Positions 1-62,400 of a stretch of 64,000 nt of DNA are shown here, piece after piece. Below the pieces are notes generated by a model, which saw only the letters and a program-made list of their open reading frames with translations, did no database searches and had not been told where the DNA came from. The translations under genes and the position numbers were made by a program. The stretch lies in contig OZ281494.1 in assembly GCA_965637545.1 (NCBI GenBank), positions 9,610,001 through 9,674,000 on the forward strand, given 5' to 3'. Position 1 is the first letter of the stretch. Each line of letters begins with the position of its first letter. The DNA comes from Phallusia mammillata. Its lineage: Eukaryota.

Positions 1-66
1 CTTGTGCCATTATTAGGAAGTGTTTTGCCGAGTCTGGTTGGAGGCATAAGCAAGTTGTTTAAGTGA
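1..66 (+). CDS. C-terminal end of an upstream Polinton ORF (LVPLLGSVLPSLVGGISKLFK*), amphipathic, adenovirus pX-like tail
   Basis: Frame 1 is open from base 1 to TGA 64-66, which overlaps the next ATG (TGATG). The hydrophobic/amphipathic tail resembles protease-released Polinton core peptides. Confidence 0.55.
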   Translation, partial: LVPLLGSVLPSLVGGISKLFK

Positions 67-677
67 TGTCCGTGCAAAAAATGATGCTCATTGACCCACG
101 CATGTACCGCGATTCGACCACAAAAGTACTATCACGACTTGATGCTGACATGGAACAGATTTTAAATCGGAACGATTTGACGGATCAAGAAAAAATCTCG
201 CAATACCAGGAAGTGTTGGAAAAGTATTTGCTGTTTCACCAGAAACTCGAGAAGCCCCTGGCACTCCCTATCGTACGCAACCCCGCACCTGCAATTCAAA
301 ACAAAGCGCTGAAAACGGACAATCTCGCCGAGCAAACAACTCACTCTATAGCAAAGCCATTCGATGACGCAGCGGAAATGATTGTAACAAGCGCGCCCAA
401 AGCTCTGCAGAAAAAGGCTCGATCACTATTAGATCACTTAAAGCAGAACAACATAAATTGGGACGCGCACAAACAACTGATCTACAATGATCAAGTGATC
501 ACCGGAAGCAATATCGTCTTGGTTCAAGACGCTCTTCGTAAGCGTAAGAATGTAGATCCAATCGGTTGGAAAACATTTGCTGAAATCCTGAAAGAAACCA
601 ACACACCCGAATATATCGTCGGAAACAAAGACCGCTTCAATTTTACCAAAACGAATCCAAGTTGGAAAACCTATTAA
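66..677 (+). CDS. Conserved Polinton/Maverick protein of unknown function
   Basis: About 203-aa ORF inside the element. The pattern W...LIY...ITGSNI...DALR.RK..P.GW..F...L.E.N.P...VGN..R is recognisable from Maverick hypothetical proteins (recall, not searched). Confidence 0.7.
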   Translation: MSVQKMMLIDPRMYRDSTTKVLSRLDADMEQILNRNDLTDQEKISQYQEVLEKYLLFHQKLEKPLALPIVRNPAPAIQNKALKTDNLAEQTTHSIAKPFDDAAEMIVTSAPKALQKKARSLLDHLKQNNINWDAHKQLIYNDQVITGSNIVLVQDALRKRKNVDPIGWKTFAEILKETNTPEYIVGNKDRFNFTKTNPSWKTY

Positions 678-1708
678 TGGAAAAGATATACTACACACCC
701 TCTCAGGCGGGGAGTTTGGGCGGCGTTGATGCCTTGCATCGCTACAGCAAACAAAACCGATCCGATGTGAAACAATGGCTTTCAGGAAGCAGGGCTTATA
801 CCTTGCACAGAACTGCGCGACGTCACTTTCCTCGCAGAAAAGTGGTTGTAGGGGGAATGGGCCAACTCTTTCAAGCCGATCTAATCGATATGAAGCGATT
901 GGCTCGTTTCAACGATAATGTAAAATTTCTGTTGACCAACATTGATGTTTTTTCAAAGGTGGCGTATGTCATTCCTTTGCGCAATAAAACTTCTAGCTCC
1001 GTGGTGAAAGGCTTTTCCAGCATCCTTGAACAAACAAAGCCTTGCAAACTTCAAACAGACCTTGGCAGTGAATTCATATCAAAACCATTTCAAGCTTTGT
1101 TAAAAAAGCACGGCATTGGTTTTTACAGTACTTTTAACGCCGAGACAAAGGCTTCTGTGGTCGAACGTTTTAATCGCACAATTAAAAGCAAGCTATTTCG
1201 ATACATGACCGCGCAAAACACCCATCGCTATATTGATGTACTTGACGACCTTGTTCACTCCTATAATACATCCTATCATCGTGCAATCGGGCGAGCTCCA
1301 TTGGAAGTAAGTGACTGCAATCAGGAAATTGTCTTCCAGAAACTCTATGGCCATCCTGAACCTTTGACCCGACAACGATTTAAACCGGGTGATGCTGTTA
1401 GAATTTCTAAGTTCAAAAAGGTTTTTGGAAAAGGGTACGTTTCGCAGTGGAGCGAAGAATATTTTCATGTAAAACAGCGGCAGCCCGGCGAACCTCCAAC
1501 TTACACGCTATCAGATCTAAACGGGGAACTCTTGCAGGGGACGTTTTACGAAGCGGAACTGCAAAAAATAACTCCGCCGGAAACATTTCAAATTGAAAAA
1601 ATAATAAAGCGAAGAAGAAATAAATTATACGTTAAATGGAAAGATTATTCGCATGATTTCGATAGTTGGATCCCGGCGTCAAGCGTTCAACATGCCAGTG
1701 GTCACTAA
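677..1708 (+). CDS. Retroviral-type (rve, DDE) integrase with C-terminal SH3/KOW-like region and chromodomain
   Basis: Catalytic triad motifs QADLIDM, LQTDLGSEF and VVERFNRT are present. The C-terminal FQIEKIIKRR..LYVKWKDY..DSWIP is a chromodomain. ATG 677 overlaps the upstream TAA. Confidence 0.95.
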   Translation: MEKIYYTPSQAGSLGGVDALHRYSKQNRSDVKQWLSGSRAYTLHRTARRHFPRRKVVVGGMGQLFQADLIDMKRLARFNDNVKFLLTNIDVFSKVAYVIPLRNKTSSSVVKGFSSILEQTKPCKLQTDLGSEFISKPFQALLKKHGIGFYSTFNAETKASVVERFNRTIKSKLFRYMTAQNTHRYIDVLDDLVHSYNTSYHRAIGRAPLEVSDCNQEIVFQKLYGHPEPLTRQRFKPGDAVRISKFKKVFGKGYVSQWSEEYFHVKQRQPGEPPTYTLSDLNGELLQGTFYEAELQKITPPETFQIEKIIKRRRNKLYVKWKDYSHDFDSWIPASSVQHASGH

Positions 1709-1925
1709 GATTTGTGCATCTTCTGGTAAAATTGTCTTCATTTGCCAAATAATTCTAATTTATGGTGTTGTGATTGCCAGCATATTCAATATTTCATCGC
1801 CTCAGCAAACAGAAAAACAGCTTTGGATATCCTTGTTGTCGAGTTGCTTAGGTTACCTGTTACCGAACCCGAAACTGAAGTTCAAAAGGAATGCAGCAAT
1901 TCAACCTAGCCCTGCCGAGCAATAG
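1692..1925 (+). CDS. Small two-transmembrane Polinton protein
   Basis: ATG at 1692 gives 77 aa with two hydrophobic stretches (IVFICQIILIYGVVIASIFNI and LWISLLSSCLGYLLPNP). It overlaps both neighbouring ORFs. Confidence 0.7.
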   Translation: MPVVTKICASSGKIVFICQIILIYGVVIASIFNISSPQQTEKQLWISLLSSCLGYLLPNPKLKFKRNAAIQPSPAEQ

Positions 1926-2619
1926 CAGCTTGGATTTTTATCCGGATAATACAGTGACAAAATACACCACCCGCTTGCCTAGGTCGTTTGCACTACAAGG
2001 CGAGTGGGAACTCGCTCTGGACGAAATTTTTATACCGAAAACATGGAACACTTTTGCGAACGGAGAAGCTTGGCTCAAAATGAAAACTAGGGGTGGAACA
2101 CAGCGCTTGGTTCTTCCCGGGGGTCATTACACAGCTGCATCCTTCGTGCAGGGCTTTCGATCCCTTTTAAGCTTGTCCGAAACAGAATCAAATGTGAGCT
2201 ACTTGAGCATCACCAATCGACTACGTTTAAGCATCGGCGACAATTATCAAATCAAACTCAGCCCCAAGCTTGCCGCCATTTCAGGCTTTGATACCGGGTA
2301 TTTATCAGAAGGCGCTCATTACTCAACTCGACCGCTTGATTTGGCGCAAGGAAGACATCTGATCTCTGTGTATTGCGATATATTGGAGAGCCGAGTGGTC
2401 GGCGATGCGCATGCCCCTCTATTGGCCATCGTCGGAAGTGATTCGGTGCACTTTACAAAAATAATTCATCGCCAATACGCTAAACTTCGATTTCTCAGGG
2501 TACAAAGAAAGGTATTTGATTCTATTACAATTGATATCCGAGACTCAACCGGAAAACCAGTGCCATTTGAAAGTGGGAGCGTTGTGGCGAACTTGACTTT
2601 GCGTGCAATAAAATCATGA
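1891..2619 (+). CDS. Minor capsid protein (penton, single jelly-roll)
   Basis: N-terminal LPSNSS..YPDNT...YTT.LP....L.GEWE.AL.EI and C-terminal VYCDI.E...VGD..APLL...I.IDIRD..G..VPF motifs are typical of Maverick minor capsid proteins. Confidence 0.85.
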   Translation: MQQFNLALPSNSSLDFYPDNTVTKYTTRLPRSFALQGEWELALDEIFIPKTWNTFANGEAWLKMKTRGGTQRLVLPGGHYTAASFVQGFRSLLSLSETESNVSYLSITNRLRLSIGDNYQIKLSPKLAAISGFDTGYLSEGAHYSTRPLDLAQGRHLISVYCDILESRVVGDAHAPLLAIVGSDSVHFTKIIHRQYAKLRFLRVQRKVFDSITIDIRDSTGKPVPFESGSVVANLTLRAIKS

Positions 2620-3029
2620 ACGGTGTTTGTGCAACAGCTTGTCCTTATCAAACCTACTATTTGAATCAGGCGGGTAACGGCCACCCCGTGTTTCACGGAG
2701 CTTCCTATCAACGCGGGCACGGTTTGGGGAATTTGTTTGCGGGTTTGGCTAAAAGCGTGGTGCCTCTGTTAAAGAGTGGCGCTAAAACCGTTGGAAAACA
2801 GCTGATCAGGTCGGGTGTCGAATTCGCGGGCGATTTAATTTCAGGCGTCAATCCGAAAAAAGCAGTCATTCAAAGAAGTAAAGAAGCCGGAAAAAATGTT
2901 TTCGGCTTGGTGGCCGATGCTCTTCAAAAACCACCGAGACAACGCAATAAAAAACGTAAACGCGCGCCTTCCAAAGCCAGTCGCAAAAAGGCAAAGCGGA
3001 CGAAAGGACGTGACATTTTTAGTGGATGA
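2616..3029 (+). CDS. Putative virion core/DNA-binding protein with adenain-type cleavage motifs
   Basis: YY.NQAGNG and YQRGHG|LGNLFAGLAKSVVPLLK motifs, followed by an Arg/Lys-rich C-terminus (RQRNKKRKRAPSKASRKKAKRTK). Confidence 0.75.
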   Translation: MNGVCATACPYQTYYLNQAGNGHPVFHGASYQRGHGLGNLFAGLAKSVVPLLKSGAKTVGKQLIRSGVEFAGDLISGVNPKKAVIQRSKEAGKNVFGLVADALQKPPRQRNKKRKRAPSKASRKKAKRTKGRDIFSG

Positions 3030-4333
3030 GAATGACCTGTCACCCCAAGTCAGCAGAATGTGTTAAAAGCGAGTTGGATTTGTTTATGATTCCTCCGACA
3101 GATACAACTTGTACTGAAGGTTACTTTAGCGAATACTTACCCATCAGCACCATAGGAGAAGCATCTCCGATAGAATTCCACATTTCACCTACAACCGATG
3201 AGTACATAGACTTGTTTCACACCCATTTTCAAATCCGCGCCAAAGTCCTCAACGCGGATGGATCTGCTTTGGCGAATGACGCGGAAGTGTCGGTTGTCAA
3301 CAATTTTGCGCATAGTCTGTTTAGTCAAGTGGATTTATCAGTCAACGATAAATTGGTTACCTCTGCAACAAACACTTACAGCTATAGGGCGTACATTGAG
3401 ACTCTGATGTCATTTGGCCCGGCAGCGAAACAATCTTACCTAACAAGCGGTTTGTATTACAAAGATACAGCGGGAAAATTCGATACTATGTCAGGGGCAA
3501 ACGGCGGATATGCCAAACGCAAAGCCTTTATCGCCGAAAGCAAAACAGTAGATCTTTACGCGAAACCGCATCTTGACTTGTGTAACCAAGACCGTTATGT
3601 TTTGAACGGGGTTGGTTTGAAATTTCGTTTTCTACGCAATTCGGATGAATTTGCTTTGATGTGCGCCGATGACGCAAACTACAAAATTCGCGTGGAAAAT
3701 ATGTCATTGTTCATCCGAAAAGTGAAAATCAGCCCTGCCGTTCAAATAGCACACGCGAAAGCGCTACTCAAATCCAACGCCTTGTATCCGATACGACGAA
3801 CTGATGTGAAAATTCTAAGCATTGGAGCGGGAAACATGGATTTAAATCAACAGAATCTATTTCTGGGACAGGCTCCTAAAAGGGTTGTTGTTGGACTCGT
3901 AGAAAACAGCGCTTACAATGGAACGAGATCCAAAAATCCATTCAATTTTAAAAATTTCAAAGTGAATTTCATGGCCCTCCACATCGGAGCAAAAACTGTT
4001 CCTTCGAAAGTCCTAAAGCCTAATTTTGACGAAGATCTGTTCATGCGTTGTTACACCTCCATGTATACGGCCACTGGCAAGTTCTTTGAAGATCTCGGCA
4101 ACAACATATCTCGCAAGGATTACAAAAACGGTTTCGCGCTTTTTTCTTTCAATCTTTCGCCAGACTTAAATTCAGGAAGTCATTTTGGTTTAAAGCAGAA
4201 GGGGAACATACGCTTGCAATTGCAATTCGCATCGCTGCTGACAGCAACGGTGAACGTCATCGTTTATGCAGAGTTTGATAATATTTTGGAATTGAACAAA
4301 GACAGAACAGTGCTGTTTGACTACTCCGCCTGA
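3026..4333 (+). CDS. Major capsid protein (double jelly-roll, hexon-like)
   Basis: 435 aa. C.KSELDLF..PPT, PIEF.I, NNFAHSLFSQV, YRAYIETL, NPFNF and VIVYAEF motifs are characteristic of Maverick major capsid proteins. Confidence 0.9.
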   Translation: MRMTCHPKSAECVKSELDLFMIPPTDTTCTEGYFSEYLPISTIGEASPIEFHISPTTDEYIDLFHTHFQIRAKVLNADGSALANDAEVSVVNNFAHSLFSQVDLSVNDKLVTSATNTYSYRAYIETLMSFGPAAKQSYLTSGLYYKDTAGKFDTMSGANGGYAKRKAFIAESKTVDLYAKPHLDLCNQDRYVLNGVGLKFRFLRNSDEFALMCADDANYKIRVENMSLFIRKVKISPAVQIAHAKALLKSNALYPIRRTDVKILSIGAGNMDLNQQNLFLGQAPKRVVVGLVENSAYNGTRSKNPFNFKNFKVNFMALHIGAKTVPSKVLKPNFDEDLFMRCYTSMYTATGKFFEDLGNNISRKDYKNGFALFSFNLSPDLNSGSHFGLKQKGNIRLQLQFASLLTATVNVIVYAEFDNILELNKDRTVLFDYSA

Positions 4334-4774
4334 ATGGATTCTCTCACCATAAAACGCATTTTAAACGAAGATAAAAAAGCCAGACGCATCTTCCGCGGAG
4401 TGTATCCGAAAGATCAAATAAACGGCATCGAGGTTCATGCACCGGCCGCGTACGTTTTTAATACCGATGACCACGATGAACCCGGAACTCACTGGTGTGC
4501 TGCTTATTTCGACGACAGCGGCAAGGGTTACTATTTCGACAGCTACGGATTAATGATTTTTCCCGAATTTTACAACTTTATGTCCGACAACGCCACTCAG
4601 TGGACGTTCAATAATATCCAACTCCAAAGCTTTCAATCCTCGGTTTGTGGACATTATGTAATTCTGTTTGTATTCGCTGTATCACGAAACATCTCAATGG
4701 AAGACTTTGTAAACTCTTTTTCGTCCAATTATATAGCAAATGACTTGGTTGTACAAACGTTATTCGATGAATAA
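4334..4774 (+). CDS. Adenain-like (adenovirus-type) cysteine maturation protease
   Basis: Catalytic motifs GTHW, YFDSYG and Q....SSVCG (His-Asp-Gln-Cys) are all intact. Confidence 0.93.
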   Translation: MDSLTIKRILNEDKKARRIFRGVYPKDQINGIEVHAPAAYVFNTDDHDEPGTHWCAAYFDDSGKGYYFDSYGLMIFPEFYNFMSDNATQWTFNNIQLQSFQSSVCGHYVILFVFAVSRNISMEDFVNSFSSNYIANDLVVQTLFDE

Positions 4775-4775
4775 A
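4770..4775 (+). terminator. AATAAA polyadenylation signal overlapping the protease stop codon
   Basis: GAATAAA spans the TAA stop at 4772-4774 at the end of the co-directional cassette. Confidence 0.5.
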
Positions 4776-5024
4776 TTCTCCCCGAAGCGCTTGGCAATTG
4801 ACTGCGTCAAAACCGTCTTTGCAATATTACGTCAGAAAACAGGTCTGCAGGCGCGAATTAATTGGCTTCGCCAAGCCCTTTGATGGGCCTGGTAAACACG
4901 ATTGCCTAGCGTACAATTGTTCCCATCCAATTGCCCTCAATAGCAATGCAATTCAGGAAACAATTTCCGCAAGCGAGGCCAGCTCACCACAAACGTAAAG
5001 ATAATGCTATCTTGCGGTTTTTAC

Positions 5025-5527
5025 CGTTTAGGGTTATATCAATCTGGGCAACAAACTACCTAGGGTTATACCTAATACATACCAAATAGTTAGGAAAATC
5101 ATCCATAGGATTACATTCATTACCCTCTAAAGGGTTATAGTTAGAATTATTAGCATCTCAAATTAACGTCTAAACTTAGGGTTATTACCCTTAGGATTGA
5201 AGCTCCTAAACTTTGGGTCAGAGTCTAAACTTAGAATGATTACCGTCTAAACCTAGGGTTAGGGTTAGGGTTAGCATTTAAACCTAGGGTCTTAACTAGG
5301 GTTAGGGTTAGGGTTAGCTCCTAAACTTTGGGTCAGAGTCTAAACTTAGAATGATTACCGTCTAAACCTAGGGTTAGCATTTAAACCTAGGGTCTTAACT
5401 AGGGTTATAGTTAGGGTTAGCGTCTAAACTAAGGGTCTAAACTTAGGGTTAACGTCTAACCGTCTATAGGGTTAGACCGGAAGTAATTGAGCATACTTGG
5501 TGGGTCAAAGCCACAATATATACTACT
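5025..5527. repeat. Polinton right terminal (probable TIR) region with telomere-like TTAGGG/CTAGGG repeats and an internal ~114-bp tandem duplication
   Basis: CTAGGG(TTAGGG)2TTAG at 5253-5274 and 5296-5317, with scattered TTAGGG. AGCTCCTAAACTTTGGGTCAGAGTCTAAACTTAGAATG occurs at about 5201 and 5315. Confidence 0.75.
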
Positions 5528-6250
5528 CAAATTATGCTTCCTTGGTTAAAGATTAGCATCACTTTACGCCATGATGTGTTACATAACTTATGGCCCTAAA
5601 ATTCGTGCAACTGTTAACTTTAAAGTAGAAAAATACAGTCAATAAAGTTTCCCGAAAATATCTTAAAACATGGCAGTGCGGGCATTTCCTGGAGCAGCAA
5701 CCTGTCGTGCTGAAGATGGCTTCTTCCGTTGTTTGCACACTGGCGTTTGCATTCCACGGTACAAAGTTCGAAGTTACGGAAGCGACTGCTGGCTGGGTGC
5801 GGTGGCAGACGAGAGCGATGAGGATAGAGGTCAGCTCAAGAAACTATTTTTTCAAATGCTTTCAGTTTAAAGTATCCATTCATCATAACAACGATAACAC
5901 ATAGGACAGTTGCTTACTTTAAAAAAGTTAAATTTCAGAACCCTTGAATTGCACCGATGATGAATTTAAATGCCGCTCTCTCAAAAAGTGTGTACCGCGT
6001 TATCTTCTCAACACCAAAGAAAGCTGCAAATTAAACGAGGGCTTGATTCTTCCATGCAGAAATCAGACAGGTTGGTTGGTTGTTACTAAACTGCAACTTC
6101 AAATCCATTTATATTAGTAGTTTTTTATGGAAAGTTCCTCCTTTAACAATTCAAAACATTTTCATTCCTCCCTAATAAACTACACAGTAAATGTTTAACC
6201 TTACAAAGATCATTTAAAATTAGGTGCTTTTTAACTTTACGGTTTATATC

Positions 6251-6430
6251 CAGTGGTGGGTTTCATTTTTTTTGTCTGGCGGTTCTATCACAAAAGTCTT
6301 ATTTTTCAGCCGGTTCTGTTACAAATAGTCCATTGACAGTAACCAGTAATGCTAACCGGTTCGCTGATCTCATAAAATTTCGTGAGACGGTTCTATACAA
6401 CCGGTGCGGACCGGCTGAATCCCACCACTG
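6251..6430. mobile_element. Small MITE in GPCR intron 3 (also in copy 4 at about 60428-60606)
   Basis: TIR CAGTGGTGGG.TTCA / TGAATCCCACCACTG. It is absent at the orthologous site in copy 3 (about 53186-53195). The TSD is degenerate. Confidence 0.75.
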
Positions 6431-8094
6431 TTTACGTCCCTAGAACTATAAAGTGTTTGTTTACAAATAACGTGTACAAGTTAAAGTCAATTTCTCCCAT
6501 CAGGTTTCAAAATTTCCGGTAAGGTACCACTGCGCTATATGTAGACAAGTCACTGTTCCATTTATTGTATCATAGAATTCACGTGCAAACGCAGCAAGTT
6601 GTGTATTCCACGTTGGATGGTGAAGAACGGCAAGCGCAATTGTGACACAATGGTAGTGAAGGACGGAAGTGACGAAACCATCGATGTAACCTCATGTGAC
6701 GCTTCAGAATTTCCCTGTTCCAACAACACTTCCTCACCACTACAGTGCATTCCGAGGGCATGTGTTGGAGACGGTGTGAAGGATTGTGCAAATGGAAGAG
6801 ATGAAATTACGAACTTGACAAGTTGTTACAATGACACAGAGTTTCGGTGTAACACAAACGGACGTTGTTTGGAGCGACATCGAGTGATAAATAATTTTCC
6901 TGATTGTCCTGATGGTTCCGATGAAAAGTAAGCTCTTAAATGCATTCCAGATAAAGAGTTTCGATGCCACGACAACGGTCGTTGCATTCCGCGCTCGTGG
7001 CGAGGAAACACCTTCGTGAACTGTAACGATGGAAGCGACGAAATTCCATGGAGCGCAAACGAAACGTGCTTTGATGGCGAATTTCGTTGTCACAACGGCA
7101 AGCGATGCATTTCCATCTACTTGTTGTGTGACGGCATGGATCACTGCGGTGACTGTAGCGACGAGATTGAGAGCTGCACTGAACCCAGGATGCTTCGATG
7201 TCCTAACGAGCCGGGTACGTGTGTGCTTCCCACCTATTCCTGCGATGAGTTTGCAGACTGCCCAGAAAATACCGAATACGTCAAACATACCACTGGCTTC
7301 AAGTGTAACAAAGTTGTGGCCGGAATTGACAGTACTGTGTACTGCGTTCTGCCCCAATGGACATTAACTGATGAATATCCGATTTGCCAAGATTCGTCAG
7401 ATTTGTGTTTTGTCAACGGAACTTTCAACTGTCATCGGTGTTTGTATTCGGACATGATTATTTCACCCAAACAGTTATGTGACGGTATTTTTGACTGTCC
7501 TGACCTAACAGACGAATGCCTTTGCGCCCGAAATGTTCCGGGTTCGGCTTCGTCAGTATATCTGTGTGACAATGTGTGCTATGGTGATTCTGGCAACCCT
7601 GCTTGTTCGTTGTGCAGCATGGGGCAAGTAAAATGTGGATTGGAAGACGTATGTATTTCCAAATCACAAGTGTGCGACGGTAAAGTGGATTGTCCTATCA
7701 CAAAGCTTGATGAGCTTCACTGTGGCAGATCAACCAATCAGGACAACGTAATTAACTTAAAAAATTTTCATTGCGACCCCATTCCACAAGAAATAAGCAA
7801 AGTTATTCAAACAGTGTTGACCAAAGATGTCATAAACACCTTAGCTCCTTCGCAAGCTACAAAGTACGAGGCTGTTTGGCAATAGAAGAGAAGTATACGT
7901 ATTTCATGATTATGGTTTCTGTTGTTGCAGGTGTAACAACGTTGTGGAGTGTTCAAGATTCGAAGACGAGTGCAGCGAGAGAGCAAATTGTAGCATCAGA
8001 CATCCACTGTGCGACCAAATTCCTATGGACGTGGTAATGTTTTGACTGAGGGGTATTTCCATCCTTCATACTTCCTGTAATGTATAGTTTAAAC

Positions 8095-8679
8095 CAGTGG
8101 TCTTCAACCTGTGGGTCGCGACCCCAAGTGGGGTCGCCTAAACTGTTTCTGGGGTCGCCATAAATTCAAGTTATTGGCGTTTAAATTTATTACCTAAAAA
8201 AATGATACGTTTTCGTTCTAGTTCGCAACCTTTGCTCATGTTCTGCAGTATAACTTGGTAGCTCCAGTCACAATCTAATCATTGTGATGCAGTAATCCAC
8301 ATGAAACACAGTCATCTAACCCATTGTTACGCCATAGAGCCTCATTAATGACATATTGTGTCCAAAATAATACAGCGAGTACAGGGAAATATACATGATT
8401 TTACTGATTTCTGCAAACTGGTGAGCTTTAACGCGAATTAGACTGGTCAAAGTAAATAAAACGTTTGGGTTCTAACATTTAAGCGTAATAACGCACGCTG
8501 AATGTTAATAGTTAAAGTATACTGGAAAATTGAGCGTTCATGTTTACATAAAAATAGTTTCAGTTTTGACATTACTACAAACATTTTTCTCCCTATTGGA
8601 AAAAACGGGGTCGCATGTAAATGCTGATTTAATTTTCTTTTAAATTGGGGTCGCCTTTAAAAAAGGTTGAAGACCACTG
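8095..8679. mobile_element. hAT-type MITE
   Basis: TIR CAGTGGTCTTCAACCT / AGGTTGAAGACCACTG with an 8-bp TSD GTTTAAAC (8087-8094, 8680-8687). Empty site in copy 4 at about 62260. Confidence 0.9.
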
Positions 8680-9146
8680 GTTTAAACTATTGAATGTGGA
8701 AGCCTTGATTTGCATAAAGTTCGTGCTTATACTTCTCTTTTGACACTTATTCATCATCTATTGCCACTTAGTGCCTAAGTTAAGACAGTGTTACCATATG
8801 TTGACTACAACTGTGTTACGAAAATCTTGCGACCAATTTCTTCTTAGATGTTTATCTCTGGACACTTACTCGGTGGAGATCTACTGGCAGTGCAAGCACG
8901 AAAATGTCAACTACATTTTGGCTTCAGTTCCATTCTAGGTTCATCAATTTGCAACGGATATGAGGAATGTCAGGAAGGTTACGACGAAGCGATTTGCCTC
9001 GGTCGCTTTCGATGCGCAGCAGGACAAGTCGAAACTTTAGTTTACGGTTAATAGATTGTCATTCAGACCTAAAAAGGCTGTATTTGTTTGTTGATTATTT
9101 AGTTATGTGTTTAATACTTTTTGCATTACTACAAAAGCTGGCATAC

Positions 9147-9497
9147 TAGGGTTGTAAGTCGGGTCGGACTTTTCGGGCCTAGGTTTTTCAAATCGGGCCT
9201 GACTTCACATTCTGTGTACGCAACATTTTACAAATAAAATCCCCTAGCTAAATAGACTTTTAATGGACTAATGCCTAACAGCCCTAAAACGTCTTGTTTA
9301 AGCCAATGTTTGTTACTTTGCATTGTGCATGTCAACTTTACGATTTTCTGTACAGACGTACTTTTTGTAAGCTTTCATGTATTTGCCGGTCAAACAGTTT
9401 TGAGCCCTCTCAAAAACGATTTAGGTTCGGGCCGGGTTTGTATGCTTTGGTTCTGGCCGGATTTGTGCTAGAACTTCCGGCCCCGCCTAAAACTCTG
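9147..9497. mobile_element. Old degenerate MITE in GPCR intron 6, shared by all four copies
   Basis: TAGGGTTGTAAGTCGGG...AAACTCTG ends with TCGGGC subterminal repeats, related to the 30652-31059 element. A degenerate TSD (TGGTATAC/TAGTATAC) is visible in copy 4. Confidence 0.6.
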
Positions 9498-12400
9498 TAG
9501 TATACAATTTACATAAACCAATCTTTCATACTAAAGTGGATAACTTCGTTCAGGTGTTCGTGATCGTGTAAGCATCCCGGTCCAGAAAACATGCGACCTG
9601 GTCTCCGATTGCATCAACTCCACAGACGAACTTAACTGTTCCGAATCCACACACTTCTACTGCCTCAACAAGTCCCCTCCATATGTACCAATAACCAAAG
9701 TTCTCGACGGCGTTTCAGACTGCAGCGATTCCTCAGACGAATGTCCTCCGAACTACTTCAAAAACGACGCACTTGCCTCCAACGAGCAAATGATCAAAAT
9801 TCGAGCTCTCGAAATCCTGGTCTGGTTTATGGCAATATTGGCGTTGTTTGGCAACCTCGCAGTTATGATAAACACTGCGCTTTACTTTAAACAAACCAAG
9901 ATCGATCAATTACAAAACAAAGTAGGCTTGATCAACAACGCTTTGATTTTCAACTTAGCAATAGCTGATTTTCTCATGGGTATCGTTCTCCTGGTTGTTG
10001 GAATCAAAGCGGTTGAGTTTTCAGGGAGTTACTGTCTTTTTGACAAGTTGTGGAGATCTAGTAACCTGTGCAACGCAATCGGTGCCATGACAGTGATTTC
10101 AAGTGAAACATCAGTGCTTACATTGGTTTGCATCACATCATATCGTCTCTACATCATTTGTAAACCTTTCGAGTCTCGTTGTATCAGGGGCAGAATTGCA
10201 ATAATGTGGATCTGTATCATCTGGTTTGTCTCCTTTCTTCTTGCTTTGCTTCCACTTTCTACCGTCTTGTCTGGAAATATGTTAAACAGGGCTCAAATCA
10301 CGCCTAGTCCTTATTTCTATTCTGATCAAGTGAAACTTACCGACTTCAGGCAATTTGCTCTGCGAATCGCTGCTTTAGGCAACAAAACTCAGCAAAATAT
10401 TGAGTCATACAATTGGGACGAACTTAACGCTTATCTAACCTCGGAACAAAGCTCCGTGGCGCCATCCACTGTCGGTTATTTTGGTTACTACAGCAGCAGT
10501 AGCGTTTGCATTCCGCGTCTGTTTCGCATCAGCAAAAACGAATCGGGCGTCAACCCAATGTCGTCCATTGTAATCTCGTTCAACTTTGTGGCACTTCTTT
10601 ACATTGCTTCGTCTTATGTTGCCATTTACATCAAATCGAGTGGCAATGAGGTGACTAAATCCAACAAGGTGAAGAACAAACAGAATGTGAGCATGCAACG
10701 GAAAATCACATTGCTCATAGCAACTGACATGTGCTGCTGGTTACCGATTTGCATCATGACATTTCTTAGTATGTCAGGAGTTGTTCTGCCTCCGGATTCC
10801 TATGCAGTTTCAGCAGTGGTTCTCCTGCCCATCAACAGCTCACTCAACCCGATGATTTGCACCAACTTTCCACAGATGGTCTATTCCAAAATCCGATTTC
10901 TTATCAACAAAGCCAGAAGTTGCTTCAATTTCTCGCCATTGCGCAACGCCGTGCATCGACCATCAGCCGAGCTTGAAATGCCCAAGAAAAATGTCACTAA
11001 AGTGTAACCTTCCAATTTTTTAACGTAAATTGGCCATAACACCAAGAAAGGCACGCTACTCTTTGTGCCTAAATTTAGATAATTGTTGTCTATTAATTAT
11101 ATACGTGGCCTACCTTTTGTCTGACGTTTCTGTAAATAAAACCCTTGCGCTGTCAGTAGCCAGTGATGCCCTAAAATGTTTACGTTTATGTGGATAAGTG
11201 AAACTTTTACCAAGTAAAGCTGTATACGAATCCCCGCCACTTGACGCTTGTGCAACGGTATAGCTAAAGCGTGTTCGGCATCTTTTCACCATTTGCGCCC
11301 CTTTGCTGTTTGCGCTCCTTGCCGTTTAACGTTACGCAGCTTTATCCGCTTGGGTAAATGCTATAGCGCGACTGTGCTGCTACGATTTGTTCTACGAGCA
11401 AACGAAATTCAAATCAAGCACGTCCTTGAAGGAGTAGAGTGCTAAAAACATGATTTGCAGACACAAACTGTTGCTGTTGTGTGTTTTTGTACAGACGGCA
11501 TGATGTTGCTTACAAGTATGACATGTCTTGTTTGAAACTGAACTTGTTGACTTATTCCAATACCGTATTCAAGAATTATGCTTTAATATTTTTACTGAAA
11601 AAAATTGTTGTTTGAATATTACTGCCATTTGTCACTTCTTTCAATTACATTGTCGTTTTGCCTGGACGCAGCGACATGTTCATTATTTCCGCAACTCTCT
11701 CGATGTTAGAGTGTTCAGTTGTTTTCGCAACAGAAAAATTTAGTTAAACCCTCTTTTCTATTTTTTATTTCAAAAAACCGACCATTGTAACACTGCAGTT
11801 CTTTTCCTGGAATATGTATGTACTTACAATTTCGTTAGACGTCGCTTATGTGTTGTGACTAAAATTGCCTAATTTACAGCAGTGTTCAGTTTTCTGGTCA
11901 CTGTAGGCAATATGTAATGTACAACGGTATTGGTTCTCAGTTAAAGCGAACAGAAAAGCGTCACAATCATCTTGTAACAAAAAAAATGGCCAATAACCTG
12001 ACACAAAGAAACATGTGACGTTATAAGAGTCAACATATCTTAACTCATACACCAACATTGTCCTGACATTAATCTAAAATAATCGCACACAATCAAATTA
12101 CGTACCAACTTGTTAGAAATCCAGGTTTAAACTACAGACACTTTGACGGATGTTTAGCACTTTAAAATGAACAGGCATTCATGCTTTTATAGCTGCACAT
12201 AATACAAGGTATAATGTTAGAACATACATATTTCTAAACTAAAATAGTTCAATCACAAACTGCGACTCATAAAAAAGCTGCTCAGAGCACAGAAAGAAAC
12301 TGCAAAACGTGGCCTGCGCAACATAGCACTAGCAATGGTATCAGACGCATTGTTACGTTTTAGTTTTCTCCACCAATCATGGCAGGCGCTTTAATACGTC

Positions 12401-23200: not shown

Positions 23201-25792
23201 TCCATTGACAAAACACAAGTCTGATGAATCTTGGCAAATTGGATATTCATCGGTTAATGTATATTGGGGCAGAACGCAGTACACAGTTTGTTCAATTCCG
23301 GCCACAACTTTGTTACACTTGAAACCAGTGGTATATTGGACATCCTCGGCATTTTCTGGGCAGTCTGCATACTCATCGCAGGAATAGGTGGGAAGCATAC
23401 ACGTATCGGGCTCGTTAGGACATCGAAGCATCCTGGGTTCAGTACAGCTCTCAATCTCATCGCTACAGTCACTACAGTGATCCATGCCGTCACACAACAA
23501 GTAAATGGGAATACATCGCTTGCCGTTGTGACAACGAAATTCACCATCAAAGCACGTTTCGTTGGCGCTCCATGGAATTTCGTCGCTTCTATCGTTACAG
23601 TTCACGAAGGTGTTGCCTCGCCACGAGCGCGGAATGCAACGACCGTTGTCATGGCATCGAAACTCTTTATCTGGAATGCATTTAAGAGCTTGCTTTTCAT
23701 CGGAACCATCAGGACAATCAGGAAAATTATTCCTCACTCGATGTCGTTCCAAACAACGTCCGTTTGTGTTACACCGAAACTCTGTGTCATTGTAACAACT
23801 TGTCAAGTTCGTAAGTTCATCTTTTCCATTTCCACAATCCTTCACACCGTCTCCAACCCATGCCCTCGGAATGCACTGTGACGATGAGGAAGTGTTGTTC
23901 GAACAGGGAAATTCCAAAGCGTCGCATGAGGTGAGGGTGATGGTTTCGTCACTTCCGTCTTTCACTACCATTGTGTCACAATTGCGCTTGCCGTTCCTCA
24001 CCATCCAACGTGGAATACACAACTTGCTGCGTTTGCACGTGAATTCTATGATAAGTTGACATAAATGTGAGTATCTTGCCTACTTGTAGGACAGTGGTAC
24101 CCAACCGGAAATTTTAAAACATAAAAGGGAGAAATCTACTTTAACTAAGTTAGTACACGTTATTTGTAAACATACACTTTAGCTCTGGGGATATAAACCA
24201 GAGAGTCGAACCGGAACTGAACCCGAACCCGCGAACTGGTTTGGGCGGTTAATTTCATTAAACCCGACCCGAACCGCGAACTGCGATTTTCTAAAAACCC
24301 GAACCGGAGTTGAACTCCATATTTTGTATGGCGTTGAACCCAAACCCGAACCGAACCAGTAAAAAACGCAGTATGTTTTATATTTTGTGATTTTTTTCAA
24401 AACAGCACACTGAAGAATTCACGAGATGACACTTACAGGGCGTGTCAAAAACAACAGTGCTCAGGAAAAAAAATTGAGTGTGATGAGGCCAGGTAGATGA
24501 TGGGTAGAATTAAATTAAAACAAATAAAAATTTGAACCGGTTTGAAAACCGCAAACCGGTTCGGACCGGATAATTTGCCCAAACCGAAACAAAACCCGAA
24601 AATATACATTTTTAAAAACCCGAACCGAATCCGAACCCTAAAAAACAAAACCAAGTGAACCCGAACCGAACCTGAACACATATGACAAGCGGTTCGACTC
24701 CCTGATATAAACCGTAAAGTTAGTAAAACACATAATTTTAAATGATCTTTGTAAGGTTCAGCATCAGGGAGGAATGAAAATGTTTTGAATTGTTAAGTGA
24801 GGAATTTTTCCATAAAGAACCACTAATATAAATGGATTTAAATTCGCAGTTTAGTAACAACCAACCAACCTGTCTGATTTCTGCAAGGAAGTATCAAGTC
24901 CTCGTTTAATTTGCAGCTTTCTTTGGTGTTGAGAAGATAACGCGGTACACACTTTTGGATAGAGCGGCATCGAAATTCATCATCGGTACAATTCAAGGGT
25001 TCTGAAATTTAACATTTTGAAGTAAGCAACTGTCCTATACAGTGCCGGATTAAGGATCGGCTGCCCTGTAGGCACGTTTCATAAGTGGCCTGAAAATCAG
25101 GGTTGCCAAATAAAAATTAGAATTATCAGTGTTGCCAAATCATTGTCACAAAGAAAAGTGGCCTGGATTTTTGACTGGCCTGTATAGGCACGTGTCTACT
25201 TTGCCTAATGGTTAATCCGGCACTGGTCCTATATGTTATCGTTTTTATGATAAATGGACATTTTAAAGAGTTGGAAAATAATTTGTTGAACTAACCTCTA
25301 TCCTCGTCGCTTTCGTCTGACAACGAATCCAGCCGGCAGTCGCTTCCGAAACTTCGCACTTTATAACGTGGAATGCAAACGCCAGTGTGCAAACAACGGA
25401 AGAAGCCATCTTCAGCACGACAGGTTGCTGTTCCGGGGGATCCCCACACTGCCATGTTTTAAGATTTTTTCAAGTAATTTTGTTGCCTGTATTCTCTACT
25501 TTAAAGTAAACAGTTGCACGAATTTTGGGGTCATAAGTTATGTAACACATCATGACGTAAAGTGGTACTAATCTTTAACCAAGCAAGCATAATTTGACAC
25601 AATTAAACGTTAACTGTCAAAAAATCTATGTGAGACGAAATTATACGTAATAATAAAACCAGTTACATTTAGCAGTTTATGAGTGAAATTTTGCCAACCT
25701 TGTTTCAAAGGACGATATACGCTTTTTCCTTACCACTTACCTTGAGGTATTGAGATCCAAGAAAGAACAACAATAAGTACAAGTGGTTCCAT
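20287..25792 (-). CDS. LDLa-repeat rhodopsin-class GPCR copy 2 (GRL101/RXFP-related, no LRR block seen), about 1126 aa; exons 25792-25741, 25448-25296, 25001-24870, 24045-22758, 22689-22587, 22403-22205, 21740-20287
   Basis: Signal peptide MEPLVLIVVLSWISIPQ, then roughly 13-15 LDLa-like C...C.DGSDE modules. The 7TM region has GNLAV, NLAIADLLMG, TDMCCWLP and NSSLNPMIY. Exons total 3381 nt with no stop found. Confidence 0.9.
24199..24704. mobile_element. hAT-type MITE with CCGAA/AACCG subterminal repeats, in intron 3 of copy 2
   Basis: TIR CAGAGAGTCGAACCG / CGGTTCGACTCCCTG with an 8-bp TSD ATATAAAC. Confidence 0.88.
25040..25225. mobile_element. hAT-type MITE in intron 2 of copy 2
   Basis: TIR CAGTGCCGGATTAA / TTAATCCGGCACTG with an 8-bp TSD GTCCTATA. 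It is absent from copies 1, 3 and 4. Confidence 0.9.
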
Positions 25793-52280: not shown

Positions 52281-55200
52281 ATGGTATCATTTGTGCTCTT
52301 TGTTGTTCTTTCTTGGATCTCAATACCTCAAGGTAAGTGGTAAGGAAAAAGCGTATACTTATTCTTCTGAAACTAGGTTGGCGAAATTTTACTCATAAAC
52401 TATCATGCAAATGTAACTGATTTTAGTATTACGTACAATTTTGTCTCACATTTCAGAGTAGATTTTTCGCCAGTTAACGTTCAATTGTGTCAAATTATGC
52501 TTGATTCGTTAAAGATTAGCACCACTTTACGCCATGATGTTTTACCTAAACTTATGACCCCAAAATTCGTGCAACTGTTAACTTTGAAGTAGAGAAATGC
52601 AGGCAATAAAATTACCCGAAATAATCTTAAAACATGGCAGTGCGGGCATTCCACGGAACAGCAACCTGTCGCGCTGAAGATGGCTTCTTCCGTTGTTTGC
52701 ACACTGGCGTTTGCATTCCACGTTATAAAGTCCGAAGTTACGGAAGCGACTGCTGGCTGGGTTCGGTGTCAGATGAAAGCGACGAGGATAAAGGTCAGCT
52801 CAAGTAAACATTTTTCCTAGTGCCTTTATTTGTCTATCCACCGCAATAACGATAACACACAGGACAATAGCTTACTTTAAAAAAAGTTAAATTTCAGAAC
52901 CCTTGAATTGCACCGATGATGAATTTCGATGCCGCTCTATCCAAAAGTGTGTACCACATTATCTTCTCAACACCAAAGAAAGCTGCAAATTAAACGAGGG
53001 CTTGATTCTTCCATGCAGAAATCAGACAAGTTGGTTGGTTGTTACTAAACTGCGAATTCAAATCCATTTATATTAGTGTTTCTTCATGGAAAATTCCTCA
53101 CCTAATAATTCAAAACATTTTTATTCCTCCCTAATGCTGAACCTTACAAAGATCATTTAAAATTAGGTGTTTTATTAACTTGATGGTTTATATCCCCAGA
53201 GCTAAAGTGTTCACAAATAACCCTTTATGTTTTAAAATTTCCGGTTGGGTACCACTGTCTTACAAGTAGCCAAGATACTGTCACATTTATGTCAACTTAT
53301 TATAGAATTCACGTGCAAACGCAGCAAGTTGTGTATTCCACGTTGGATGGTAAGCAACGGCAAGCGCGATTGCGACACAATGGTAGTGAAGGACGGAAGT
53401 GACGAAACAATCACTCTCACCTCATGTGACGCTTTTGAAATTCCCTGTTCGAACACTTCCTCACCGTCACAGTGCATTCCGAGGGCATGGGTCGGAGACG
53501 GTGTGAAAGATTGTGCAAATGGAAGAGATGAAATTACAAACTTGACAAGTTGTTACAATAACACAGAGTTTCGGTGTAACATAAACGGACGTTGTTTGGC
53601 GCGACATCCAGTGATGAATGATTTTCCTGAATGCCCTGATGGTTCCGATGAAAAGAAAGCTCTTAAATGCATTCCAGATAAAGAGTTTCGATGCCATGAC
53701 AACGGTCGCTGCATTCCGCGATCGTGGCGAGGCAACACCTTCGTGAACTGTAACGATGGAAGCGACGAAATTCCATGGAACGCCAACGAAACGTGCTTTG
53801 ATGGCGAATTTCGTTGTCACAACGGCAAGCGATGCATTCCCATCTACATGCTGTGTGATGGCATGGATCACTGCGGTGACTGCAGCGACGAGATTGAGAG
53901 TTGCACTGATCCCAGGATGCTTCGTTGTCCTAACGAGCCAGGTACGTGTGTGCTTCCCACCTATTCCTGCGATGAGTTTGCAGACTGCCCAGGAAATGCC
54001 GAGGACGTCCTACATACCACTGGTTTCAAGTGTAACAAAGTTGTGGCCGGAATTGACCGTACAGTGTACTGTGTTCTGCCCCAATGGACATTAGGTGACG
54101 AATATCCGATTTGCCAAGATTCATCAGACTTGTGTTTTGTCAACGGAACTTTCAGATGTCATCGGTGTTTGTATTCGGATATGATTATTTCACCCAAACA
54201 GTTATGTGACGGTATTTTTGACTGCCCTGACCTAACAGACGAATGTCTTTGCGCCCGAAATGTTCCGCGTTCGGTTTCGTCAGTATATCTGTGTGACAAT
54301 GTGTGCTATGGAGATCCTGGCAACCCTGCTTGTTCGTTGTGCAGTATAGGGCAAGTAAAATGTGGATTGGAAGACGTATGTATTTCCAAATCTCAAGTGT
54401 GCGATGGTAAAGTGGATTGTTCAATCGCAAAGCTTGATGAGCTTTACTGCGGTAGATCAACCAATCAGTACAACGCGGTGAACTCGAAAAATTTTCATTG
54501 CGACCCTATTCCACAAGAAATAAGTAAAGTTCTTCAAACGCTCTTAACCAAGGATGTCATAAACACCTTAGCTCCTTTGCAAGCTACGAAGTAGGTGGCT
54601 TTTTTGCATTACAAGAGAAATATGCATGTTTCATTAATTGAGTTTGTTTGATTTGCTGCAGGTGTAACAATGTTGTGGAGTGTTCAAGATTCGAAGACGA
54701 GTGCAGCGAGAGAGCAAATTGTAGTATGAGACATCTATTGTGCGACCAAATTCCTATGGGCATGGTAATGTTTTGACTTAAGGGATATTTTCATCCTTCA
54801 CACTTCCTGTAGTGTGTTTTATTGAAAAACTTTGATTTGGTTCAAAACGGTACCTAAGTTATAGTTATATGTTGCCTACAATGTGTTTTGTTGAAACCAT
54901 GTGTAATACGCAATTTTTTTAGTGGGTTATCTCTGGACACTTAGTCGGTGGAGATTTACTGCGAGTGCCAGCACGAATTTGTCAACTACAATTTGGCACC
55001 AGTTCCATCCTAGGCTCATCAATTTGCAACGGATTTGATGAGTGTCAGAAAGGCTACGACGAAGCGACATGTCCAGGTCGCTTTCGATGCGCAGCAGGAC
55101 AAGTCGAAACCTTGGTGTTTGGTGAGATTTTGTTTATCATTCAGACCTGAAAAGGGCTGTACTTGCTTTTAGGATATTAGGCAATGACTTTTATTATTCG

Positions 55201-59488: not shown

Positions 59489-62400
59489 ATGGTACCATTA
59501 GTGCTCTTTGTTGTACTTTCTTGGATCTCAATACCTCAAGGTAAGTAATAACGAAAAAACGTATATACTTACACTTTTAAAAGAAGGTTGGCAAAATTTC
59601 ACTCATAAACTATCATGCAAATGTAACTCATTTTAGTATTACGTACAATTTCGTCTCACATTTCCGAGTGGATTTTTTGACAGTTAACGTTTAATTGTGT
59701 CAAATTATGCTTGCTTGGTTAAAGATTAGCACCATTGTACGTCATGATGTGTTATATAAACTTATGACCCCAAAATTCGTGCAACTGTTAACTTTAAAGT
59801 AGAAAAATACGGGCAATAAAATTACCCGAAAATATCTTAAAACATGGCAGTGCGGGGATTTCCTGGAGCAGCAACCTGTCGTGCTGAAGATGGCTTCTTC
59901 CGTTGTTTGCACACTGGCGTTTGCATTCCACGGTACAAAGTTCGAAGTTACGGAAGCGACTGCTGGCTGGGTTCGGTGGCAGACGACAGCGATGAGGATA
60001 GAGGTCAGCTCAAGAAACTATTTTTTCAAATGCTTTCAGTTTAATGTATCCATTCATCATAACAACGATAACACATAGGACAGTAGTTGCTTACTTTAAA
60101 AAAGTTAAATTTCAGAACCCTTGAATTGCACCGATGATGAATTTGAATGCCGCTTTCTCAAAAAGTGTGTACCGCGTTATCTTCTCAACACCAAAGAAAG
60201 TTGCAAATTAAACGAGGGCTTGATTCTTCCATGCAGAAATCAGACAGGTTGGTTGGTTGTTACTAAACTGCAACTTCAAATCCATTTATATTAGTAGTTT
60301 TTTATGAAAAGTTCCTCCTTTACCAATTCAAAACATTTTCATTCCTCCCTAATAGACTACACAGTAAATGTTTAACCTTACAAAGATCATTTAAAATTAG
60401 GCGCAATTTAACTTTACGGTTTATATCCAGTGGTGGGTTTCATTTTTTTGTCTGGCGGTTCCATGACAAAAGTCTTATTTTTCAGTCGGTTCTGTTACAA
60501 ATAGTCCATTGACAGTAACCAGTAATGCTAACCGGTTCGCTGATATCATAAAATTTCGTGAGACGGTTCTATACAACCGATGCGGACCAGCTGAATCCCA
60601 CCACTGCTTACGTCCCTAAAACTATAAAGTGTTTGTTTACAAATAACGTGTACAAATTAAAGTCAATTTCTCACATCAGGTTTTAAAATTTCCGGTAAGG
60701 TACCACTGCGCTATATGTAGCCAAGTCACTGTTCCATTTATTGTATCATAGAATTTACGTGCAAACGCAGCAAGTTGTGTATTCCACGTTGGATGATGAA
60801 GAACGGCAAGCGTAATTGTGACACAATGGTAATGAAGGACGGAAGTGACGAAACCATCGATGCAACCTCATGTGACGCTTCGGAATTTCCCTGTTCCAAC
60901 AACACTTCCTCACCACTACAGTGCATTCCGAGAGCATGGGTTGGAGACGGTGTGAAGGATTGTGCAAATGGAAGAGACGAAATTACGAACTTGACAAGTT
61001 GTTACAATGACACAGAGTTTCGGTGTAACACAAACGGACGTTGTTTGGAGCGACATCGAGTGATAAATAATTTTTCCGATTGTCCTGATGGTTCCGATGA
61101 AAAGCAAGCTCTTAAATGCATTCCAGATAAAGAGTTTCGATGCCACGACAACGGTCGTTGCATTCCGCGCTCGTGGCGAGGAAACACCTTCGTGAACTGT
61201 AACGATGGAAGCGACGAAATTCCATGGAGCGCAAACGAAACGTGCTTTGTTGGCGAATTTCGTTGTCACAACGGCAAGCGATGTATTCCCATTTACTTGT
61301 TGTGTGACGGCATGGATCACTGCGGTGACTGTAGCGACGAGATTGAGAGCTGTACTGACCCCAGGATGCTTCGATGTCCTAACGAGCCGGGTACGTGTGT
61401 GCTTCCCACCTATTCCTGCGACGAGTTTGCAGACTGCCCAGAAAATGCTGAGGATGTCCAACATACCACTGGCTTCAAGTGTAACAAAGTTGTGGCCGGA
61501 ATTGACAGTACTGTGTACTGCGTTCTGCCCCAATGGACATTAACTGATGAATATCCGATTTGCCAAGATTCGTCAGATTTGTGTTTTGTCAACGGAACTT
61601 TCAACTGTCATCGGTGTTTGTATTCGGACATGATTATTTCACCCAAACAGTTATGTGACGGTATTTTTGACTGCCCTGACCTAACAGACGAATGCCTTTG
61701 CGCTCGAAATGTTCCTGGTTCGGCTTCGTCAGTATATCTGTGTGACAATGTGTGCTATGGTGATTCTGGCAACCCTGCTTGCTCGTTGTGCAGCATGGGG
61801 CAAGTGAAATGTGGATTGGAAGACGTATGTATTTCCAAATCACAAGTGTGCGACGGTAAAGTGGATTGTCCTATCACAAAGCTTGATGAGCTTCACTGTG
61901 GCAGATCAACCAATCAGGACAACGTAATTAACTTGAAAAATTTTCATTGCGACCTCATTCCACAAGAAATAAGCAAAGTTATTCAAACAGTGTTGACCAA
62001 AGATGTCATAAACACTTTAGCTCCTTCGCAAGCTACAAAGTACGAGGCTGTTTGGCAATAGAAGAGAAGTGTACGTATTTCATGATTATGGTTTTGTTGT
62101 CAGGTGCAACAATGTCGTGGAGTGTTTAAGATTCGAAGACGAGTGCAGTGAAATAGCAAATTGTAGCATCAAACATCCAGTGTGCGACCAAATTCCTATG
62201 GACACGGTAATGTTTTGACTTGGGGGTATTTCTATCCTTCATACTTCCTGTAATGTATAGTCTAAACTATTCAATGTGGAAAGACTATGATTTGCATAAA
62301 GTTCGTGCTGATACTTCTCTTTTGACACTTATTCATCATTTATTGCCATTTGGTGCCTAAGTTATGAAAGTGTTACCATATGTTGACTACAACTGTGTTA

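Follow-up and report, generated by a model that had tools for sequence, protein, structure and literature searches.

Polintons of Ciona have been catalogued since 2006. Intact vertebrate Polintons (Mavericks) are described as having intronless ORFs (PMC8097293, which cites Kapitonov and Jurka 2006 to the same effect), and the core genes of nematode Mavericks are called intronless as well (10.1101/2022.07.12.499685). A survey of pPolB2-type polymerases excluded Chordata and mentions no spliceosomal pPolB introns in its text, both of its uses of "intron" referring to group I (10.1101/2023.08.22.554363). In the literature searched, no report was found of spliced introns in the pPolB of an animal Polinton or of a Polinton in an ascidian GPCR gene, and an earlier mention is possible.

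Here we describe a Polinton in intron 1 of a GPCR gene of the ascidian Phallusia mammillata. The window, a stretch of 64,000 nucleotides (G000:C1:9610001-9674000), was analysed together with the upstream locus L024 (G000:C1:9601001-9610100). The insertion is a clean Polinton integration with built-in empty-site controls, which makes it a marker and proof of recent mobility. A transposon in the intron of a redundant paralog is ordinary; the spliced introns in the element's pPolB gene are the less ordinary feature.

Insertion junctions and target-site duplication

The right 5.5 kb of the Polinton occupies window 1..5527 and the remainder lies upstream in L024. The left end, at G000:C1:9601447, precedes window base 1 by 8,554 bases, which gives the element a total length of 14,081 bp.

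L024:441-446, left target-site duplication (TSD), CAAATT
L024:447-1322, left TIR, 876 bp
window 4703..5527, + strand, right TIR, 825 bp, ending ACTACT
window 5528..5533, + strand, right TSD copy, CAAATT
window 59701..59706, + strand, empty site with a single CAAATT in the closest paralog
window 52491..52496, + strand, empty site in a paralog with its own stop in exon 7
window 25591..25596, - strand, empty site in an inverted paralog

An earlier note on the window had placed the right junction at 5527, and re-inspection of the sequence agreed: the Polinton terminates in ...TATACTACT at that base and is followed by CAAATTATGC. At the left junction ...TTCAGTTGTGTCAAATT is followed by AGTAGTATATATTG (also given as ...GTTGTGTCAAATT and then AGTAGTATATATTG), so that CAAATT directly precedes AGTAGT and a perfect 6-bp TSD stands on both sides. 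The note had predicted this hexamer for the left end, which lies outside the window; a match by chance has a probability of 0.0005 from base composition or 0.0008 from hexamer frequency in the window. Its predicted left-junction string was right in the duplication and the element end, and differed only upstream of the duplication.

The empty-site paralogs read AATTGTGT directly before CAAATTATGC at 59700/59701 and 52490/52491, as had been reported. The minus-strand empty site is also present, with its cut at 25597/25596, one base off the position first given as about 25597/25598. Empty sites exceed the three first named: 11 of the 12 gene copies found are uninterrupted at the site, and nine of those 11 show the hexamer CAAATT in a motif search. 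Among the contig matches listed for the four sequencing runs described below, none spans the left junction; such contigs show presence, not absence.

The ends AGTAGT...ACTACT are the motif given for Polintons (PMC8097293), and the TIR arms fall within the 100-1,500 bp expected of them. The arms differ by 4 substitutions, one 1-bp gap and one 52-bp gap. Both TIRs hold degenerate TTAGGG-like tandem repeats (window 5190-5475, L024:500-915), and this zone is the site of most between-copy differences and of the 52-bp gap. Perfect 6-bp TSDs flank all six two-ended elements (three of three in this element's own family and three of three in a sister family), each a different hexamer. No target-site preference was seen, the six TSDs having no common motif beyond AT-richness.

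Genes and copies of the element

window 677..1708, + strand, retroviral-type integrase with a C-terminal chromodomain (Pfam rve E 4.8e-09, Chromo E 1.8e-05)
window 1891..2619, + strand, candidate minor capsid protein, one gene before the major capsid protein (MCP), a position as in PMC4028283
window 3029..4333, + strand, probable MCP, from Atlas look-alikes
window 4334..4774, + strand, adenovirus-type cysteine protease (Pfam Peptidase_C5 E 0.00012, above cut-off)
L024:1377-6409, - strand, pPolB in four exons, frame broken near 4680 and 2000
L024:7565-7623, + strand, candidate GT-AG intron of 59 bp, within an unnamed gene that precedes the ATPase; a single contig of depth 3 skips it
L024:8067-8678, candidate packaging ATPase (A32/FtsK-type), a P-loop ORF with sub-threshold matches only

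The rve integrase, end motifs, TIRs, TSD and a flanking exon 1 (below) confirm the Polinton identity and the intron-1 location that the earlier note had proposed. The product of window 3029..4333 is probably a major capsid protein, as suggested by Atlas scores of 0.99-0.98 to clusters with 14-30% of members carrying PF21738 (DJR-like). The Atlas look-alikes of the candidate minor capsid protein are unnamed proteins, the best two with Preplasmiviricota as their commonest taxon. Neither candidate capsid protein has a Pfam or PHROG match, and PHROGs gave no useful match for the element proteins generally. A single query of viral_contigs, which covers close relatives only, returned no relatives with DNA context. 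The protease gene runs into the right TIR with its last 72 bp, and the edge of the shared stretch is covered by RNA-type contigs.

The pPolB pieces have no direct Pfam polymerase match, and are collinear over nearly their full length with homologues, one of which (P0006) carries DNA_pol_B_2 at E 9.4e-09. The named matches are Phytophthora proteins. A homologue also has a weak Vsr match (E 0.0065, below cut-off) where the alignment meets the third intron described below.

A second full copy lies on contig C7. It is 14,128 bp long, its two TIRs are identical over 926 bp, it has its own 6-bp duplication, and long internal stretches are 97-99% identical to the GPCR-intron copy. A shorter element of 3.9 kb on contig C8 (L027, G000:C8:8763481-8767375) also has its own 6-bp duplication. 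As the C7 and C8 copies carry their own duplications, the family has been recently mobile. The C8 element has TIRs of about 1 kb around a 1.8-kb interior that matches none of the family sequence tested, and it reads as a non-autonomous derivative. A lone diverged element end is found at G000:C1:1056059 (L028) with a weak integrase fragment nearby; the 16 kb upstream of it contain no partner end or other element genes.

The receptor gene and its array

L024:231-282, GPCR exon 1, 52 bp, coding MVPFVLFVVLSWISIPQ, with a GT donor
window 5534..5676, + strand, rest of GPCR intron 1
window 5677..11008, + strand, GPCR copy 1 exons 2-7 (5677-5829, 5939-6070, 6576-7863, 7931-8033, 8848-9046, 9554-11008)

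The earlier note had expected exon 1 beyond the left end of the Polinton, 160-170 bp before the junction. A 52-bp signal-peptide exon was found there, ending 164 bp before it. Without the element, intron 1 would measure 164 + 143 = 307 bp, compared with 310 bp in the paralog at 59.5 kb. The gene has seven exons and codes for LDLa repeats and a 7tm_1 domain; no LRR was found by Pfam in the large ORFs of four copies, and the named ascidian relatives list no LRR family. Its best database matches are ascidian proteins, most of them with PF00057 plus PF00001. One Phallusia mammillata protein shares 93% identity with part of the last exon and starts with the same signal peptide, which runs into exon 2. 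The border of exons 1 and 2 is supported by the named ascidian protein P0043 and by an RNA-type contig. A possible 15-bp micro-exon separating exons 3 and 4 was rejected, the named protein joining exon 3 directly to exon 4.

The 12 copies recovered for the exon 1-exon 2 region are distributed over three contigs: C1 has ten, in a span of about 165 kb, and C6 and a 5-kb contig have one each. The array (G000:C1:9592000-9756000) is built of three units, each with two copies in forward and one in inverted orientation, and of one further inverted copy. Its copies are 93-96% identical and their identity is patchy, which suggests gene conversion. Between copy 1 and its closest paralog, with the empty site at 59701, the exons are 96.4% identical. 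This divergence is far above that between the TIR arms, so the insertion would be later than the duplications. A partial extra duplicate of the last GPCR exon (L023:6779-9673) lies between the first copy and copy 1, and part of it is 100% identical in protein to a named Phallusia sequence. Intron 5 of copy 1 contains a 585-bp MITE (window 8095-8679) with a 15-bp TIR starting CAGTGG and the 8-bp duplication GTTTAAAC. It is present in copy 1 and absent from the paralogs fetched, and from its 8-bp duplication we take it to be hAT-like.

State of the interrupted copy

window 6929..6931, + strand, in-frame TAA in exon 4 of copy 1, absent from the ten others of the 11 copies

Copy 1 has also lost 136 bp, in a deletion ending 6 bp before the ATG. 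An RNA-type contig of a paralog reaches 41 nt into the stretch that copy 1 has lost, with exon 1 spliced to exon 2. An exon-by-exon screen of the 11 copies, which left out the 5-kb contig fragment (itself broken), found four with a stop and seven open. In 1,104 codons, the private coding changes of copy 1 are 8 synonymous, 12 non-synonymous and 1 stop; those of an open paralog taken for comparison are 7, 11 and 0. Relaxed selection on copy 1 is not detectable from these private changes. Since the two sets resemble one another, the decay of copy 1 would be recent; they do not fix the order in which insertion, stop and deletion came. Contig C296 was considered as an empty allele of copy 1 and rejected: it retains the 136 bp that copy 1 lacks, shows 84-92% identity and carries breaks of its own.

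The claim that the provirus splits a host receptor gene holds in the physical sense, and the loss is probably slight, the copy being broken in other ways as well and seven copies being open. We consider it very probable that host copy 1 is silent or truncated, and the consequence of the insertion for the host is probably small. The simplest reading is a tolerated hit on a redundant member of an array that evolves by birth and death.

Introns of the polymerase gene

L024:4255-4323, - strand, pPolB intron A, 69 bp, GT..AG
L024:3797-3867, - strand, pPolB intron B, 71 bp, GT..AG
L024:2857-3561, - strand, pPolB intron C, 705 bp, GT..AG

All three introns start with GT(A/G)AGT and finish with AG after a T-rich tract, and their GC content is 0.22-0.37 compared with 0.40-0.42 in the pPolB exons. 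The C7 copy carries the same three introns (69, 71 and 676 bp), so that both full copies have them. In collinear alignments with five intronless homologues, no residues are missing where the introns interrupt pPolB. Each of the introns, if retained, ends the pPolB reading frame.

Four sequencing runs from four studies (X2, X3, X6 and X11, of 24 listed) were compared with L024 as contigs, not as raw reads. In run X6, one contig of 2,810 nt skips introns A, B and C exactly. Two of the three are skipped exactly in run X11, and the intron A skip is not among them. For runs X2 and X3 no skipping joint is listed, and their contigs run through the introns (0/3). Runs X6 and X11 were assigned to RNA by a computed guess, and the skipping and the depth pattern back that type: in both runs, the TIR bins and the middle of intron C are without depth.

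As judged from these contigs and guessed run types, introns A-C are spliceosomal (U2-type), exactly removed in RNA and retained in DNA. The skipping contigs of X6 and X11 both differ in letters from the GPCR-intron copy (by 17-20 in the two long pieces of the X6 contig), which indicates that they come from other copies or alleles. Transcription and splicing of pPolB are thus observed for the family and not for the GPCR-intron copy. Given that every intron ends the frame if kept, we infer that the polymerase would be made only from a nuclear transcript spliced by the host. Nothing supports the introns acting as a switch. Intronless core genes are not a trait of this Polinton, and the trait is not required for membership of the group.

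Sister family and the age of the introns

The genome has 15 pPolB matches, of which four are weak fragments on C3 and only two are loci of this element's own family, both with introns; these counts are lower bounds. Seven further pPolB loci were examined. Four have no intron-like gaps, and three (L039, L040 and L042) form a sister family with about 48% protein identity to the own family in pPolB.

In two of the three sister copies there is a GT..AG intron at the same site and in the same phase as intron A; the third has kept the donor at this site and lost what lay between it and the interior of the site C insert. Intron B is absent from the sister family. At site C the sister copies have an AT-rich insert (L039 about 6547-6675, L040 about 6068-6180, L042 about 5670-5760), which opens with GT in copies that preserve its start. 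In none of the three is there an AG at the acceptor position expected. Site C is for this reason not established as a working intron there, and its insert may be either a non-canonical intron or a shared defect.

In a pPolB tree of 25 rows, built from the C-terminal part only, the own and sister families group together at 100/100; their stems measure 0.34 and 0.66 changes per site. TIRs and 6-bp duplications are present in each of the three sister-family elements, and both families have transposed. This points to intron A having been gained once, long ago, and carried through later transposition, and the site C insert probably shared that same single old gain. A common site A followed by later transposition argues against simple decay after integration.

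Proposed explanation and alternatives

We are confident of the account as a whole, which is that a recent Polinton sits in a redundant GPCR copy and belongs to a lineage whose pPolB has long carried introns. A mobile Polinton would have integrated by means of its own retroviral-type integrase with a staggered 6-bp cut, the junctions being observed and the enzyme presumed. A 6-bp stagger by the rve integrase is established for Polintons. The target would have been intron 1 of a single LDLa-repeat GPCR gene in a tandem array that evolves by birth and death, and integration would have come after the duplications that built this array. The hit copy is most likely dead, as a transcript that spliced out the 14-kb intron would still stop in exon 4, and the stretch that holds the 5' UTR in the paralogs is deleted. 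Broken copy 1 may persist because sister copies cover it. The pPolB of the element's lineage would have carried spliceosomal introns since before the split from the sister family, and its polymerase would come from a transcript that is spliced by the host, in the nucleus, with splicing seen at family level and obligate dependence presumed.

A different history for the receptor is that the insertion itself killed a working gene, with the stop, the 5' deletion and the 585-bp MITE arriving later, in which case the Polinton would be a driver of gene death in this array. We regard this as possible and would adopt it only tentatively. Copy 1 has no frameshift, its checked splice sites are canonical and it has few private changes. 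By rough arithmetic, 4 substitutions over about 824 bp of TIR give about 0.25% per arm, which translates into about 8 changes in 3.3 kb of exons since insertion, and these would give a chance stop in roughly 1/3 of cases. However, TIR divergence is a poor clock for protein-primed elements, and stops arose without a Polinton in three of the ten other copies. It seems quite improbable that the gene tolerated the insertion by splicing out the 14-kb element and yielding a short secreted LDLa-repeat peptide that ends at the exon-4 stop. A stop in exon 4 of 7 invites mRNA decay, the 136 bp deleted before the ATG include sequence that serves as 5' UTR in a paralog, and the intron, stretched to about 45 times the usual length, contains several genes on the same strand. 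In favor of such splicing, the donor and acceptor of intron 1 are intact, and the Polinton remnant in C. elegans eri-6/7 lowers the expression of downstream exons (10.1101/2024.01.15.575659).

The pPolB introns could in turn be decay insertions acquired after integration, with the skipping contigs derived from a DNA copy that has no introns. For endogenous giant viruses, introns have been interpreted as a sign of decay (PMC12768974), dinoflagellate introners enter Polinton-like elements mostly after integration (PMC12166617), and runs X6 and X11 are RNA by guess only. We nevertheless judge this quite improbable: the same introns occur in both full copies, on two contigs and each with its own TSD; site A is common to a family at 48% identity; the only two own-family pPolB loci among the 15 matches, a lower bound, both bear introns; and the missing depth of X6 and X11 over the TIR bins and mid intron C is as expected of spliced RNA. 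The locus itself could also be a misassembly or rearrangement that joined an element end to an unrelated paralog, given that the array is rich in repeats: it has three large duplicated units, and a piece of a paralog sits on a small unplaced contig. This is hardly credible, since the left flank is exactly the missing exon 1 plus the initial 164 bp of intron 1, the TSD has no mismatch, and a single 36-Mb contig carries both ends; misassembly was rejected on the evidence of this left junction.

Significance

A pPolB with three host-type spliced introns is unusual for elements described as intron-free. Spliced pPolB points to nuclear expression of a replicative gene, presumably spliceosome-dependent, in an accessible marine animal, and inherited spliced introns in the polymerase touch on the question of Polinton lifestyle, virus or genome-bound transposon. 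Intron-bearing and intronless families coexist in one genome, so the comparison is directly testable. ORF-based screens would score intron-bearing Polintons as degraded.

On balance we lean towards the wider claim that in an animal Polinton lineage the spliceosomal introns of pPolB predate the split of two families, which kept transposing, and that the spliced mRNA is expressed in the host. If so, the intron-bearing lineage would be tied to the nucleus and spliceosome of its host, and the positions of introns would serve as a heritable marker separating long-resident, vertically inherited Polintons from recent intronless arrivals in the same genome.

Comparison with known systems

The receptor resembles the Ciona LDLRR-GPCR family (PMC2396169) in its tandem LDL-A repeats on a rhodopsin-type 7TM, its lack of LRRs and its ascidian expansion, a likeness by domain architecture. 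Phallusia has at least 10 copies, 93-96% identical, in a single tandem array that spans about 165 kb. The insertion resembles C. elegans eri-6/7 (10.1101/2024.01.15.575659), where a Polinton also lies in a host gene, between exons. At eri-6/7, effects were measured and rearrangements followed across 550 strains, whereas in Phallusia there is one redundant, broken paralog with a clean TSD in one assembly.

The element has the TIRs, (AGT)2...(ACT)2 ends, 6-bp TSD and two gene modules of vertebrate Mavericks (PMC8097293). It has in common with them the core genes for pPolB, ATPase, integrase, capsids and protease, the capsids and ATPase being putative here. Unlike the intronless vertebrate elements (PMC8097293), the Phallusia pPolB has three spliced introns. 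With Phytophthora proteins as its named matches, this polymerase may be near the pPolB2-type polymerases of oomycete, mollusc and nematode Polintons (10.1101/2023.08.22.554363).

In having spliceosomal introns, the element is like the Polinton-like elements of dinoflagellates (PMC12166617) and the mirusviruses (PMC12768974), where such introns are read as a sign of nuclear transcription. Those systems have protist hosts, and the introners are mostly younger than integration (PMC12166617). The Phallusia element, in contrast, is an animal Polinton whose introns are common to dispersed copies, with one intron site common to two families.
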